A stretch of DNA of 44,107 nucleotides from an uncultured Syntrophaceae bacterium (GTDB lineage: Bacteria > Desulfobacterota > BSN033 > UBA1163), in contig CAYGWV010000112.1 in NCBI GenBank assembly GCA_964353925.1, positions 1-44,107 on the forward strand, written 5' to 3'. The position numbers were made by a program, and so were the translations under genes. Each line of letters begins with the position of its first letter. The first letter of the stretch is position 1. A model generated the notes under the pieces. That model did no database searches. It had not been told where the DNA came from and saw only the letters and a list, made by a program, of their open reading frames with translations. Positions 1,384-20,493 of this stretch are shown here, piece after piece.

Positions 1384-2487
1384 ATGGACAAAAAGATTAC
1401 AATCAAGGATATCGCCCGAAAGGCCAATGTTTCCCACACCACTGTCTCAAGGGCGCTAAATGATAAATCCCGTATTAAGAGCGAGACTAAGGAAAAGATT
1501 CTTTCCATTGCAAAGGAATTACACTACCGGCCAGATTTCATTGCCAGAAGTCTGGTGATGAGGCGAACCAAGACACTCGGTCTCGTCATCACGACCATTG
1601 CCAACCCCTTCTATACGGAACTCTCCCAAGGGATCGAATCAACGGCCATCCGTTTGGGGTACAATATCATTCTATGCAGTACCAATTATGACCTTTCAGC
1701 CGAGAAAAAGTATATTGATATGCTGCAAAGCAAGGGGGTAGACGGTATCATTTTCACTTCTGCCCATATGGGTGACCCCAATATCATTGGGTTGGCAGAA
1801 GAGGGATTTCCAATGATACTGGTCAATCGAAGAACCTATCATCCCACCGTGAGGAATAAAGTCGATTACGTCGGCGTGGATAATATCCGGGGTGGTTTTT
1901 TGGCCGTTGAGCACCTCATCAGACTTGGTCATGAACGGATCGGAGTGATCGGTGGATCGAGTGAATCCTCTGTTGGCTTTGAACGTTTGGAGGGCGGAAA
2001 GAAGGCACTCGCTGCTTACAATTTGGAAGTGATGGGTGATTATTTTTTGGAAGGGGATTTTTTAAGAGGATCCGGCTATCAGGGAGGCAAGAGATTTCTT
2101 GAAATGGACAAGCCTCCAACCGCGATTTTTGCTACGAACGACTACATGGCGTTAGGCACTTATCAGGCGCTCATGGAAGGGGGTATCAAGGTTCCAGAAG
2201 AAATCGCATTAATTGGGTTTAACGATATCGAATTCACGTCGATGAAAGGGATTGAATTGACAACGATCGGCCAAAAGAAGTATGAGATGGGTGCTCTGGC
2301 TGTGAAAACATTGGTTGAAAGGATTGAGGGCAGAAAGGGCGGGCCTCCGGTGGAAATGATTTTAGAGCCGGAACTGATCATTCGGAAGACTTGCGGTTTC
2401 CATCCGAAGGGTTATCAAATTGAATCTCAAAATAGGTATGGGCTGGATGATATCAAATCCGAAACACGAAATCCGAAAGTAATTTAG
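1384..2487 (+). CDS. LacI/GalR-family transcriptional regulator
   Basis: N-terminal HTH ITIKDIARKANVSHTTVSRALN followed by a periplasmic-binding-protein-like core (GLVITTIANPFY, IFATNDYMALG). ATG 1384 (MDKKITIKD) is preferred over the upstream ORF start at 1345. Confidence 0.85.
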   Translation: MDKKITIKDIARKANVSHTTVSRALNDKSRIKSETKEKILSIAKELHYRPDFIARSLVMRRTKTLGLVITTIANPFYTELSQGIESTAIRLGYNIILCSTNYDLSAEKKYIDMLQSKGVDGIIFTSAHMGDPNIIGLAEEGFPMILVNRRTYHPTVRNKVDYVGVDNIRGGFLAVEHLIRLGHERIGVIGGSSESSVGFERLEGGKKALAAYNLEVMGDYFLEGDFLRGSGYQGGKRFLEMDKPPTAIFATNDYMALGTYQALMEGGIKVPEEIALIGFNDIEFTSMKGIELTTIGQKKYEMGALAVKTLVERIEGRKGGPPVEMILEPELIIRKTCGFHPKGYQIESQNRYGLDDIKSETRNPKVI

Positions 2488-2544
2488 GGATTGCGAATTT
2501 AGGGATTAACGAATCAAATTCCTGAATTCCTCAATTCCTGAATC
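2485..2544. repeat. Intergenic imperfect palindrome built from AGGGATT/AATTCCT heptad-like units (family E)
   Basis: tagggattgcgaatttagggattaacgaatcaaattcctgaattcctcaattcctgaatc. The left arm is roughly complementary to the right arm. It overlaps the lacI-family stop codon. Confidence 0.5.
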
Positions 2545-2600
2545 AAAGCGTTGAGACTTAAAATTTGCTTCGAATTTTTGTTCTGAGAGGAGGGGATATT

Positions 2601-3530
2601 ATGAAAAGGAAGAAGATCTCCATTATTGGTGCAGGATTCGTGGGGGCCACGGCGGCCCATTGGGCTGCTGAAAAGGAACTGGGGGATGTCGTCTTAGTGG
2701 ATATCCTTGAAGGGATTCCCCAAGGAAAGGCTCTTGACCTCTTTCAAGCAGGGCCTGTCGAAGGTTTCGATGCAAGAGTTACCGGTTCCAACGGGTACGA
2801 CGAGACAAAAGATTCAAGTGTGGTCATTGTCACCTCGGGCGTTCCTCGAAAACCGGGGATGAGCCGGGAAGATTTGTTGGAGATCAATAAGAAGATCATC
2901 GAGTCGGTTGTCACACAAGTGGTTGAAAGATCTCCACAGGCCGTTCTGATCATGGTGACCAACCCTCTGGATACCATAACCTATCTGGCTTTCAAGAAAA
3001 GCGGGTTTCCCAAACAGAGGGTGGTGGGAATGGCAGGGATTCTCGATACCGCTCGGTTCAAGGCCTTCATCGCGATGGAATTAGGTGTTTCGGTTGAAGA
3101 TATCCAGGCGCTCCTGTTGGGAGGCCATGGGGATGAGATGGTTCCCCTCCCAAGGTATACCACCATCAGCGGGATTCCTCTTTCACAGTTTCTCCCCAAG
3201 GAGACCATTGATCGGCTTGTGGATCGGACTCGCAAGGGTGGCGGAGAGATCGTCAACCTCCTTAAAACGGGAAGCGCCTTCTATGCCCCTTCCGCAGCGG
3301 CCATCCAGATGACGGAGGCGATCCTCAAAGATAAGAAGAGAATTCTCCCCTGTTGCGTCTATCTCGACGGAGAATACGGGCTGAAAGATATTTACTTCGG
3401 CGTTCCGGTTAAATTAGGAGCCGGTGGTGTGGAGGCGGTCATCGAACTCCAATTGAACGAGGAAGAGAAAAAACTGGTTGCCAAGTCTGCCGAGAGCGTC
3501 AAAAAGAGCATTACGGAGCTGAAATTATAA
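2601..3530 (+). CDS. mdh: Malate dehydrogenase (LDH-like MDH family)
   Basis: [15 protein letters not shown] Rossmann motif, [41 protein letters not shown] lies 7 nt before ATG 2601. Confidence 0.9.
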
Positions 3531-3542
3531 GTTTATGGAAGA

Positions 3543-3606
3543 GTCATTGCGAGCGAAGCGAAGCAATCCCAATAGATTGCTTCGTCGCTTCACTCCTCGC
3601 AATGAC
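3543..3606. repeat. Family A palindromic element GTCATTGCGAG...CTCGCAATGAC, copy 1
   Basis: Nested inverted repeat: gtcattgcgag/ctcgcaatgac outer arms and gaagcgaagcaatc/gattgcttcgtcgcttc inner arms. Related copies at 5139-5232 and 43137-43224. Confidence 0.85.
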
Positions 3607-3634
3607 ATAAGAAGTCCATCGTGAAGGGAAAAAC

Positions 3635-18636: not shown

Positions 18637-18641
18637 ATAAA

Positions 18642-18709
18642 GCATGGAGCAGAGGGCATAGGGTAGTGATAATCTTTTGGCTCTATGCTCTTTGCTCTAT
18701 GCCCTATGC
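18642..18709. repeat. Family B inverted repeat, copy 2
   Basis: gcatggagcagagggcataggg (18642-18663) against ctctatgctctttgctctatgccctatgc (18681-18709). The right arm accounts for the spurious N-terminal extension of ORF 18677... Confidence 0.8.
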
Positions 18710-18730
18710 CGGATAGAAGTTGGAGGAATC

Positions 18731-20404
18731 ATGCCATACACAAGGGAATTGAAAGAACTGATCAAAAAGGTTGAGGCAACACGACCTGGACGAGTCGAAA
18801 AAAAGAAGAGGGGAGAAGAGTTTCATCTTCTCTCTTTGAAAGAGAGGCAGGAACGACTGGAGAAATACCATCCCGATTTCAAGGCGGGATCAAAGAGGGA
18901 GATCCGGGTCGGCCCCAGTAAAGGCTACGCTATCTCTCCTGAGATCGTGGATCTTCTCGAAGCCAGAAGCAGACTGAACCCTGATTTGATCGATTTAAAC
19001 AAAATTGCGTACGAGACGGATGTCCTCATCATTGGCGGAGGAGGAGCAGGGACAGCGGCTGCACTGATGGTCCAGGAACATGGCGTGCGGGTGACGATTG
19101 CGACTAAGCTCAGGCACGGTGATGCAAATACGATGATGGCCGAAGGGGGAATTCAGGCAGCCTCCAAGGGAGAGAAGGATTCACCCTACTTCCATTACCT
19201 TGATGTGTTGGGCGGAGGCCATTTTAAGAATGTTCCGGAACTGGCCTGCACCCTTGTGACAGAGGCCCCGAAGATACATGCCTGGCTCGAAAACCTCGGG
19301 TGTATGTTTACAAAATTCCCGGATGGCCGTTTGAAAGCGCTTCATGGGGGAGGTACCTGCCGGAAACGGATGCACTATGCGGCGGACATTACGGGTGCAG
19401 AAATCATGCGAACCCTAAGGGATGAAGCAAGGAACCGAGTTCAGGACATCAAGGTCCTTGAATTTTCTCCAGCCGTAGAGTTGATCTTGAATGAGCACGG
19501 CCATTGTGCCGGCGCCGTCCTTTATAACCTCGAGACAGAAGAGTATTTTGTGGTCAAGGCAAAGGCAGTGGTGATGGCGACGGGTGGTTCGGGAAGACTC
19601 CACATTCAAGGATTCATGACCACCAATCATTATGGCGCGACGGGAGACGGTCTTGTGATGGGTTACCGGGCGGGAGTGAAGGTCTGTTTTCTCCACACGG
19701 TTCAGTACCATCCCACAGGGGTTGCCTTTCCGGAGCAGGCGGAAGGTATTCTGATCACAGAGAAGTTCAGGGGAGCAGGCGCCAATGTGCTGAATATCGA
19801 TGGTGAACAGTTCGTCAACGAACGGGAACCGAGGGACATAGAATCCTCATGCTTTATCCGGGAATGCACGCAGGTCGGGAAGGGAATCCCAACTCCCGCC
19901 GGAAAAATGGGGATATGGTTGGATTCCCCGATGATCGACATGCTGATGGGCGAAGGGGCCGTCAAGCGCGAGTTCCCCGGCAAATATATTCTTCTGAAGC
20001 GCTTCGGCATCGACATCTCGAAGGAGCCCATGCTGGTTTACCCAACCCTCCACTACCAGAATGGCGGATTGGAATACAATAACAGGTGCGAAACCTCCAT
20101 CCCGGGGCTTTTTTCCTCAGGCGAGGTTTCGGGAGGAGTCCATGGCGAAAACCGGCTGATGGGAAACTCCCTACTTGATGTCTGCGTCTTTGGAAGAATC
20201 GGAGGAGTGAGTGCGGCACTCTATGTCAAGGAGAAGGCAAAAGACGGGAGGCTAACCTTGGATCATGTCCGGAGATATCACAAGGAGTTGGAGGAGGCAG
20301 GGATCATCACAGACCGCGTGGCGCCGATGTTGCTCCCCGATTATTCCAATCCAAAAGTTCGGGAGCGTCAGCTGACCGCCCATTATGTGGGGACCATCCG
20401 GTAA
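18731..20404 (+). CDS. frdA: Fumarate reductase/succinate dehydrogenase flavoprotein-like subunit (FrdA/TfrA type, probably non-covalent FAD) with an N-terminal extension of about 100 aa
   Basis: DVLIIGGGGAGTAAA, MMAEGGIQAA (no His at the covalent-FAD position), QYHPTG, ITEKFRGAGANVLN, HYQNGGL, GENRLMGNSLLDVCVFGR. GGAGGA precedes ATG 18731. Confidence 0.8.
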   Translation: MPYTRELKELIKKVEATRPGRVEKKKRGEEFHLLSLKERQERLEKYHPDFKAGSKREIRVGPSKGYAISPEIVDLLEARSRLNPDLIDLNKIAYETDVLIIGGGGAGTAAALMVQEHGVRVTIATKLRHGDANTMMAEGGIQAASKGEKDSPYFHYLDVLGGGHFKNVPELACTLVTEAPKIHAWLENLGCMFTKFPDGRLKALHGGGTCRKRMHYAADITGAEIMRTLRDEARNRVQDIKVLEFSPAVELILNEHGHCAGAVLYNLETEEYFVVKAKAVVMATGGSGRLHIQGFMTTNHYGATGDGLVMGYRAGVKVCFLHTVQYHPTGVAFPEQAEGILITEKFRGAGANVLNIDGEQFVNEREPRDIESSCFIRECTQVGKGIPTPAGKMGIWLDSPMIDMLMGEGAVKREFPGKYILLKRFGIDISKEPMLVYPTLHYQNGGLEYNNRCETSIPGLFSSGEVSGGVHGENRLMGNSLLDVCVFGRIGGVSAALYVKEKAKDGRLTLDHVRRYHKELEEAGIITDRVAPMLLPDYSNPKVRERQLTAHYVGTIR

Positions 20405-20450
20405 TCTCCCCTCCTAAGAAAAGAAGGGGAAAAATCCCTTTCACGAAATT

Positions 20451-20493
20451 AAAAAATCCCCCTTTGGTAAAGGGGGATATAGGGGGATTTTTT
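20451..20493 (+). terminator. Rho-independent terminator after frdA (A6-TCCCCC...GGGGGA-T6)
   Basis: aaaaaatccccctttggtaaagggggatatagggggatttttt. Either ATCCCCCTT/AAGGGGGAT or AAAAAATCCCCC/GGGGGATTTTTT can pair. This is the first hairpin in the 6.3-20.5 kb array that carries a T-run. Confidence 0.75.

Follow-up and report, generated by a model that had tools for sequence, protein, structure and literature searches.

The window analyzed here, a 44,107-nt stretch of DNA from an uncultured Syntrophaceae bacterium, is contig C112 of a metagenome-assembled genome (MAG; 1.76 Mb in 165 contigs, 47.6% G+C, 69% complete). It carries a long plus-strand gene array, rich in heterodisulfide reductase-like (hdr) and frd genes, whose spacers contain palindromic repeats. 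Hairpin-filled spacers are a genome-wide habit in this organism, and the array is only mildly richer in them. The elements have a distribution biased relative to genes, turn over between relatives, and are symmetric at the DNA level. The best-supported reading, which we consider probable, is that they are selfish or near-neutral palindromic DNA, lodged in permissive intercistronic slots and co-transcribed with the neighboring genes.

The array begins with a carboxylase fragment, lacI, mdh, fumA, fumB, and ubiA, and continues with hdrC1-B1-A1, hdrA2-C2-B2, a gene for a 1010-aa HdrA fusion, mvhD, and genes for two Fe-S proteins and a FrdA-like flavoprotein. Scanning species genomes yielded 51 loci (L001, L002, and so on below), about 35 of them syntenic, from Syntrophaceae/Thermodesulfobacteriota MAGs; the large HdrA is 77-95% identical between the window and the syntenic loci. 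The structure of the array spacers is expressed as a fold z-score relative to 200 dinucleotide shuffles.

Three architectures and their abundance

An original prediction made from the window sequence sorted its repeats into eight families, A to H. Every motif it named is present where it had been placed, but the elements sort better by architecture than by sequence, into three kinds, and the C group proved to lump together at least three different dispersed modules. The first kind are foldbacks in which degenerate 7-8-nt units, repeated in tandem, form one arm and pair with complementary units in the other (B, D, E, F, and the G-rich part of C); folded, they give 6-bp helices with a single mismatch between each. 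The second are head-to-head dimers of repetitive extragenic palindromic (REP) units tagged xGTC (A), sister to repeats of the NTS/dRS3 type that are abundant in this genome. The third are GTAG-headed palindromes (G, H), of which G is often embedded in larger mosaics (~17 loci) and H has only its two copies.

The first kind leaves a clear signature. Within this genome, autocorrelation at lags of 7, 14, and 8 nt peaks in intergenic DNA and shows no peak in coding DNA; 53% of period-7 arrays are intergenic, in a genome of which 17% is non-genic. The 410 intergenic arrays represent 243 unit types, so that the number of families in the operon, which had been thought unusual, is normal here. An inverted partner lies within 150 nt of 33% of the arrays, against 2% in a reversed-sequence control, and mismatches are spaced by exactly 7 nt in 25 cases where 10.7 would be expected. 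The G-rich arm is the 5' one in 35 cases versus 6 in this genome and in 27 versus 9 in relatives; this G-first polarity of a palindrome reads identically on either strand.

Sequences in high copy number are likewise concentrated between genes: 89% of 12-mers with at least 15 copies fall outside them. (A threshold of at least six copies was tried as a repeat measure, but picked up mostly paralogous coding sequence, and a copy-number-stratified count was used instead.) Of the second kind, 22 of 24 xGTC dimers are intergenic. The unit of family A is xGTC-ATTGC...GCAAT, arranged as a head-to-head dimer; its abundant sister has the form (C/T)GTC-ATTCCCGC-GAAA-GCGGGAAT-CCAG.

Hairpins in the array spacers

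With gene boundaries as called, 11 spacers have z-scores of -2.2 or lower, and eight of these beat all 200 shuffles; with gene starts corrected (see below), 12 of the 14 mdh-to-frdA spacers fold far better than their shuffles (z < -2). The elements are as follows, by position in the window, with strand given where one was assigned and with the z-score of the spacer (called boundaries, first coordinate of the spacer in parentheses).

2482..2545: E, foldback with arms of ~8-nt units (GGGATTNN... / AATTCCTG x3); lacI-mdh spacer, z -2.6 (2488); a single other copy in the genome, and that partial
3543..3606: A1, two xGTC-ATTGC...GCAAT-CCC REP units joined head-to-head; mdh-fumA spacer, z -5.2 (3531), equaled by 0 of 200 shuffles
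4477..4527: F, weak GGGGAGAT-type foldback; fumA-fumB spacer, z -0.4 (4475), not significant; no repeat in the genome, GGGGAGAT-type arms present in relatives
5158..5232: A2, REP dimer in head-to-head layout that contains a nested GC hairpin and ends in CGCAATGAC; z -4.2 (5124); within an insertion missing from L001 and L026
6253..6313: H1, composite of a GTAG-CGTTCCGG hairpin and a GCCCTCA hairpin inside GGTAGCG/CGCTACC; ubiA-hdrC1 spacer, z -3.2 (6242); T-run on the minus strand only
6750..6870: C1, composite of CCCCTTCCCT/AGGGAAGGGG arms around the dispersed module CCTGCCTGCGCGAAGC..., then a second G/C-rich hairpin; hdrC1-hdrB1 spacer, z -2.2 (6745); on 17 contigs
7775..7799: C2, hairpin CGCCCTCCCC/GGGGAGGGCG; hdrB1-hdrA1 spacer, z -1.2 (7765); most relatives have only a 12-nt spacer
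9182..9293: D1, octamer-armed foldback (GGAATAAT x3 / CATTATTC...); z -3.8 (9178); left arm within the hdrA1 open reading frame (ORF)
11291..11342, plus strand: hdrA2-hdrC2 spacer, the only internal hdr-frd gap with no hairpin or repeat; z +0.2 (11291)
11922..12003: D2, array of GGAAYNNT octamers whose partner arm is degenerate; hdrC2-hdrB2 spacer, z -1.9 (11916), or -3.8 once the start is corrected
12912..12940: G, perfect 14+1+14 palindrome GTAGGGAACGGTTT-T-AAACCGTTCCCTAC; hdrB2-hdrA3 spacer, z -4.2 (12895); most of its loci genome-wide intergenic
16002..16111: B1, heptamer-armed foldback (CATAGGG/CAGAGCG/CATGGGG/CATAGCG against complements), 6-bp helices parted by single mismatches; hdrA3-mvhD spacer, z -5.4 (16001)
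16563..16590: C3, hairpin TTCCCTCCCCC/GGGGGAGGAG; mvhD-fer4 spacer, z -2.2 (16556); on 14 contigs
17786..17849: C4, foldback CCCTCTCCCC...GGGAGAGGGTTGGGGTGAGGGGGA of G-rich period-7 units; fer4-frdB spacer, z -5.0 (17782); on 23 contigs
17856..17883, plus strand: H2, GTAG-tagged hairpin immediately before the Shine-Dalgarno (SD) sequence of frdB
18642..18702: B2, complete 23-bp heptamer-armed hairpin; z -5.3 (18637-18715 as called; true frdB-frdA spacer 18637-18730)
20449..20495: A-run/stem/T-run bidirectional intrinsic terminator, ending the array
37695..37772: B3, heptamer-armed foldback covering a stop codon and the start that follows it; not in the array
43137..43205: A3, the third of the head-to-head REP dimers; not in the array

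The claim that nine of the ten hdr-frd gaps hold a hairpin, with hdrA2-hdrC2 as the exception, was borne out. So was the remark that most of the repeats lack a T-run: no rho-independent terminator (GC-rich stem with a sense T-run) was found on the plus strand in any internal gap of the array, and the sole classical A-run/stem/T-run structure is the one 3' of frdA. With no terminator between the genes, the elements would be transcribed as part of the polycistronic mRNA.

It might be asked whether these are simply chance inverted repeats or low-complexity sequences with no family relationship. Element F, no more stable than its shuffles, would fit such an explanation, and E and F are essentially without other copies in the genome. 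For every other element it is refuted by the eight spacers that outscore all of their shuffles, by the recurrence of most modules on 5-25 other contigs, and by the excess of inverted partners over the control; as a general account it is hardly credible.

Position relative to genes

Gaps with z < -2 were counted as structured, and the array was compared with the 485 co-directional gaps of 25-200 nt in the genome. Some 41-42% of tandem gaps are structured, as against 35% of convergent gaps, 20% of divergent gaps, and 16% of a coding control. In the array the figure is 10 of 15 versus 41% of co-directional gaps genome-wide (p = 0.04).

The best hairpins (n = 112) lie a median of 16 nt past a stop codon and 30 nt ahead of the next start, with 79 nearer the stop and 30 nearer the start. 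A T-run follows 14 of the 112, and an SD-like motif is overlapped in one case out of 60. The analogy with REP sequences and bacterial interspersed mosaic elements (BIMEs) drawn in the original prediction holds: these are dispersed, mostly extragenic palindromes that follow stop codons, leave the SD sequence free, have no terminator tails, and are few in divergent gaps.

Slots and fillers among relatives

Among ~30 syntenic relatives, 58% of 348 orthologous spacers have z < -2. Occupancy is 89% for fer4-frdB, 77% for hdrA1-hdrA2, and 27% for hdrB1-hdrA1, which is usually a 12-nt coupled junction. With corrected starts it is 52% for frdB-frdA and 70% for hdrC2-hdrB2. An argument about module boundaries, in which these two junctions and hdrA2-hdrC2 were hairpin-poor gaps within modules, was partly an artifact of over-extended ORF starts and was dropped for this reason. 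Clustering of the slot fillers by k-mers was set aside as confounded by conserved flanks.

The filler of a given slot changes from genome to genome. At hdrA3-mvhD, relatives carry types CATAGCG, GTAAGGC, GGGGAGAT, GAGGATC/CCTCAAG, TTCGAAAT, GTGATTGG, and CCCCTCTCCC. The hairpin in this slot has a z-score of about -5.5 in the window, -0.1 in L001 (95% amino acid identity), and -0.9 in L026. B hairpins at orthologous sites have two (L005), three (L003), or four (L030) left-arm units, differences that amount to microsatellite-like slippage. Nested insertions are found in the loop of the L029 element and in a broken gene for an intervening-sequence protein (IVP) on contig C5. The fumB-ubiA spacer (window 5124-5326) offers a filled/empty comparison: it is 203 nt long in the window and 3 and 11 nt in L001 and L026, the difference being an insertion of ~140-190 nt that includes the A2 dimer (compare L001:2455-2480 and L026:2220-2240). 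A possible TCCGTAT duplication at the edges of an insert of ~137 nt, in this single comparison, would resemble those of miniature inverted-repeat transposable elements.

Two slots have histories of their own. The hdrA3-mvhD spacer (window 16001-16132) is ~95% identical to that of L002, the flanking HdrA protein being only 90% identical, and L001, a closer relative than L002, is without the right arm of the hairpin; together these observations hint at recombination between lineages. The H2 slot, upstream of the frdB ribosome-binding site, holds a hairpin in about 10 of 33 relatives (including L002, L003, L016, L019, L021, L022, L033, and L034), in two stem variants, with compensatory changes in three of seven pairs and modest covariation (nine sequences). 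H2 may belong to a subfamily of REPs, or it may be an RNA element under conservation.

Selection at the RNA or DNA level

If the fold were selected in the mRNA, the non-Watson-Crick positions of the stems should show an excess of G·U pairs on the sense strand. G:T and A:C stem mismatches number 54:60 in this genome and 53:56 and 80:82 in relatives, and in the absence of a G·U over A·C bias no selection at the mRNA level was found. The two arms copy each other's unit variants, and complementarity is maintained in a strand-symmetric way, which points to copying at the DNA level, for example by foldback or template switching.

These results bear on the main alternative, that selected RNA hairpins split an ~18-kb mRNA into stability segments through selective RNA processing and stabilization and thereby set Hdr/Mvh/Frd stoichiometry; any stable hairpin would then serve, leaving the filler free to change. 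Such selection would explain why the same slots are filled in most of the ~30 syntenic relatives while the family changes, and is compatible with hairpins just past stops, free SD sequences, and the lack of internal terminators. An RNase III is encoded in the genome (C142:3610-3990), and RNase III cuts stems of the same build in 23S rRNA intervening sequences (PMC4990558). Precedents exist in the stem-loops of a cellulosome operon (Xu et al., 2015, PMC4423207) and in Escherichia coli REP325, which makes the transcript upstream of it more stable and attenuates that downstream (bioRxiv 10.64898/2026.03.23.713779). It is difficult, however, to square with the missing G·U excess, with the loss or decay of hairpins without replacement in the closest relatives, with an operon only slightly above the genome average, and with the occurrence of the same elements between unrelated genes genome-wide, convergent pairs included. 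We consider it unlikely. In view of the first three of these points, the claim of the original prediction that hairpins are placed in this array to set subunit stoichiometry is not supported.

A degree of influence on the stoichiometry of the operon's subunits is plausible by analogy. In the cip-cel operon of Clostridium cellulolyticum, intergenic stem-loops set cellulosome stoichiometry, with processed sites and ratios measured (Xu et al., 2015). Like the array, this is a long multi-subunit operon with stem-loops between its genes; its stem-loops are locus-specific, whereas the hairpins here are dispersed repeats.

Comparison with known repeats

No Rfam 15 family matched anywhere in the window at its gathering score, and text searches of the literature with the repeat sequences returned only unrelated primers. 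In arrangement, the elements are most readily compared with REP sequences, BIMEs, and REP doublets forming hairpins (REPINs): all are short multi-copy extragenic palindromes, mainly of co-directional and convergent gaps, found just downstream of ORFs, with head-to-head dimers, several families per genome, and occasional intrusion into ORF ends. Two tagged superfamilies, GTAG and CGTC, and the build of CGTC-1 REPs were described by Di Nocera et al. (2013, PMC3733652). The sister of family A shares the 8-bp stem starting with AT, 4-nt loop, and CCA tail of CGTC-1, and has every feature of CGTC-tagged REPs and NTS-type repeats that was considered (unpaired CGTC, TGTC, or CCTC head, AT stem, 4-5-nt loop, CCA-like tail, dimers). 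Family A of the window departs from the CGTC type in its AGTC/GGTC/TGTC heads, 5-bp ATTGC stem, long loops, and CCC/CTC tails. Family H fits the GTAG-tagged type (GTAG plus a CGTTCCGG stem), while in G the GTAG pairs with CTAC and is not an unpaired tag.

A REP-associated tyrosine transposase flanked by repeats was not found in the genome, which is 69% complete; the only Y1_Tnp-like ORF, on C41, scores 59 bits against a REP_Tyr_transpos cut-off of 80. This 194-aa HUH/Y1 transposase-like gene (C41:7613-8197; L052:1183-1767) is joined to two housekeeping genes by junctions of 4 and 9 nt and has no flanking palindromes.

A second comparison is with the NTS/dRS3 repeats and Ssn-related motifs (SRMs) of Neisseria, where NTS repeats are targets of Ssn GIY-YIG nucleases (Chenal et al., 2025, PMC11893778). 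Repeats in this genome, the sister of family A among them, fit the consensus CGTCATTCCCGCGMAVGCGGGAATCYRG, and family A itself shares the xGTC-AT... head and dimer layout. Some copies reproduce the NTS consensus (CGTCATTCCCGCGAAAGCGGGAATCCAG) almost letter for letter, as head-to-head dimers (e.g., C41:13-77, C69:9258-9323, C124:8701-8788). Another alternative is a DNA-level function for the host: the elements could be chromosomal binding or structural sites, for nucleoid proteins or gyrase, or, in the case of the xGTC/NTS type, nuclease targets that police incoming DNA. Binding sites have been proposed before, for BIMEs and as heptanucleotide "global regulator sites" in Geobacter metallireducens (PMC2700814). 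Strand-symmetric stems and a G-first polarity independent of the transcribed strand would suit a function of this sort, as would the 45 NTS-consensus copies with up to three mismatches and the 60 SRM matches, compared with ~10 in shuffled sequence. The depletion in divergent gaps and the bias toward positions after stops fit tolerance within transcripts better than chromosome architecture, however, and the huge diversity of units is awkward for any one binding protein. Family A fails the published SRM pattern, and no SRM occurs in the window contig; the genome, 69% complete, yielded no Ssn-type GIY-YIG gene. Overall, a host function of this kind seems quite improbable, more so than selection on the RNA.

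On contig C41, tandem near-identical tRNA genes with repeated spacers (C41:100-500) stand beside a small GIY-YIG gene; a foldback that contains the GCCCTGAGCTTGTCGAAGGG hairpin, which is widespread, adjoins them.

A third comparison is with tandem heptamer repeats: the short tandemly repeated repetitive (STRR) sequences of cyanobacteria, GGGAATC in Xanthomonas, and GGGGAYT in Nostoc (Rehm et al., 2015, PMC4692102), and the multicopy heptanucleotides of G. metallireducens (PMC2700814). These too are G-rich 7-nt units in tandem, few per array, intergenic, and close behind the upstream ORF. There, however, a genome has one or a few unit types; here there are hundreds, usually head-to-head in long imperfect hairpins.

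A possible link to intervening-sequence protein genes

The heptamer arms also occur around a gene. Between genes for a sensor kinase and a response regulator lies an intact IVP gene, for a four-helix-bundle "23S rRNA IVS protein" (C23:2386-2745; PF05635; TIGR02436, 90 bits), in a cassette (C23:2322-2792, L053) bracketed by B-type, GCATAGG-type heptamer arms, the same arm type as in B1. IVP genes are present in 20 of 21 related genomes, in up to 21 copies. Inverted periodic arms with a score of 23 or more, in most cases with a period of 7, accompany 26 of 30 IVP loci in 20 relatives, compared with 3 of 150 control small genes. Arm types GTAAGGC, CCGTGTC, and GCATAGG are also seen as gene-less hairpins in operon slots, and G-first polarity is common to IVP arms and gene-less hairpins. 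A second IVP gene in this genome (C5:150-920; L054/L055), with AT-rich heptamers as its own arms, is the one noted above as broken; three other hairpin repeats, inserted in nested fashion, split it. The window contains no IVP gene, and 26 diverse IVP queries detected none in the operon loci of the relatives.

The heptamer foldbacks resemble the hairpin around IVP genes, minus the gene. The closest described case is the intervening sequence (IVS) within the 23S rRNA of Coxiella burnetii, where a stem around an S23p/IVP ORF is cut by RNase III and heptamers vary (PMC4990558). As here, a long terminal-inverted-repeat stem surrounds a small four-helix-bundle gene, with heptamers in variable copy number. 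The Coxiella IVS lies in rRNA, whereas mRNA spacers house the cassettes here, as well as the similar hairpins that have no gene and greatly outnumber them. No report linking IVP genes to dispersed heptamer foldbacks was found in the literature.

A more elaborate proposal would make the foldbacks non-autonomous copies of an undescribed IVP mobile cassette, with stems that serve as RNase III sites cutting operon mRNA into modules; the slot would be selected and the filler replaced, giving anaerobes with very long redox operons an evolvable setting for stoichiometry. As a whole we regard this as speculative and rather doubtful.

Weighing the preferred reading

Palindromic repeats of three architectures fill spacers across the genome; on this reading, they spread and turn over at the DNA level as selfish or near-neutral elements. 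Heptamer foldbacks carry the G-rich arm 5' on either strand, with a mismatch every 7 nt, and their unit number drifts by slippage. Copies would persist where they are harmless: after stops, clear of the ribosome-binding site, and outside promoter gaps. Long stems in mRNA can block exonucleases or be cleaved by RNase III. Here as well, stems of 20-40 bp in a long mRNA probably hold up 3'-exonucleases or serve as sites for RNase III, judging from REPs and from selective RNA processing and stabilization. We regard any such effect on the RNA as incidental, though the cell may make use of it, and not as the cause of their presence.

Several points tell against this reading. Slot occupancy is high and uneven (chi-square p = 7e-5, the genomes not being independent), and the finding of different families in one slot could mean selection for some hairpin at that place. 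The wobble comparison had no positive control from this genome. No mobilizing enzyme could be tied to any family in a genome 69% complete: the only small GIY-YIG gene (C41:518-757, 79 aa) is of the UPF0213 type (1zg2, 1ywl) and is not bracketed by repeats, the sole NTS dimer near it lying 440 nt upstream, beyond the tRNA genes.

Effects on gene calls and assembly

The called starts of frdA, hdrB2, hdrC2, and ubiA fall inside repeats. For frdA the call is TTG 18677, within the right arm of B2; in relatives the protein is conserved only from MPYTRELKE, whose ATG is at 18731, and the N-terminal extension of the flavoprotein is accordingly ~18 residues shorter. The B element at 18642 is not a half unit but a complete 23-bp hairpin. 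ATG 5228, in the end of A2, extends the ubiA ORF, whose conserved start is near 5327. At the other end of a gene, hdrA1 takes its final 11 codons (NNNGNNGIME) and its TGA (9176-9209) from the left arm of D1, a GGAATAATGG repeat; this is a tail that has no aligned counterpart in 20 relatives.

Repeat modules are also found at many contig ends (e.g., C54:36-71, C37:79-114, C25:140-175, C13:396-417), and much of the fragmentation of the assembly is probably due to them.

Significance

In an uncultured syntroph lineage, the elements account for much of the non-coding DNA, and they corrupt gene calls: in the window, the ends of hdrA1, ubiA, and frdA are extended or supplied by them. The ~30 syntenic genomes give a clean picture of persistent slots with changing fillers. 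The connection to IVP genes provides a testable lead on the heptamer repeats of bacteria, long unexplained. If the stems are processed, they would be relevant to the subunit ratios of flavin-based electron-bifurcating complexes.

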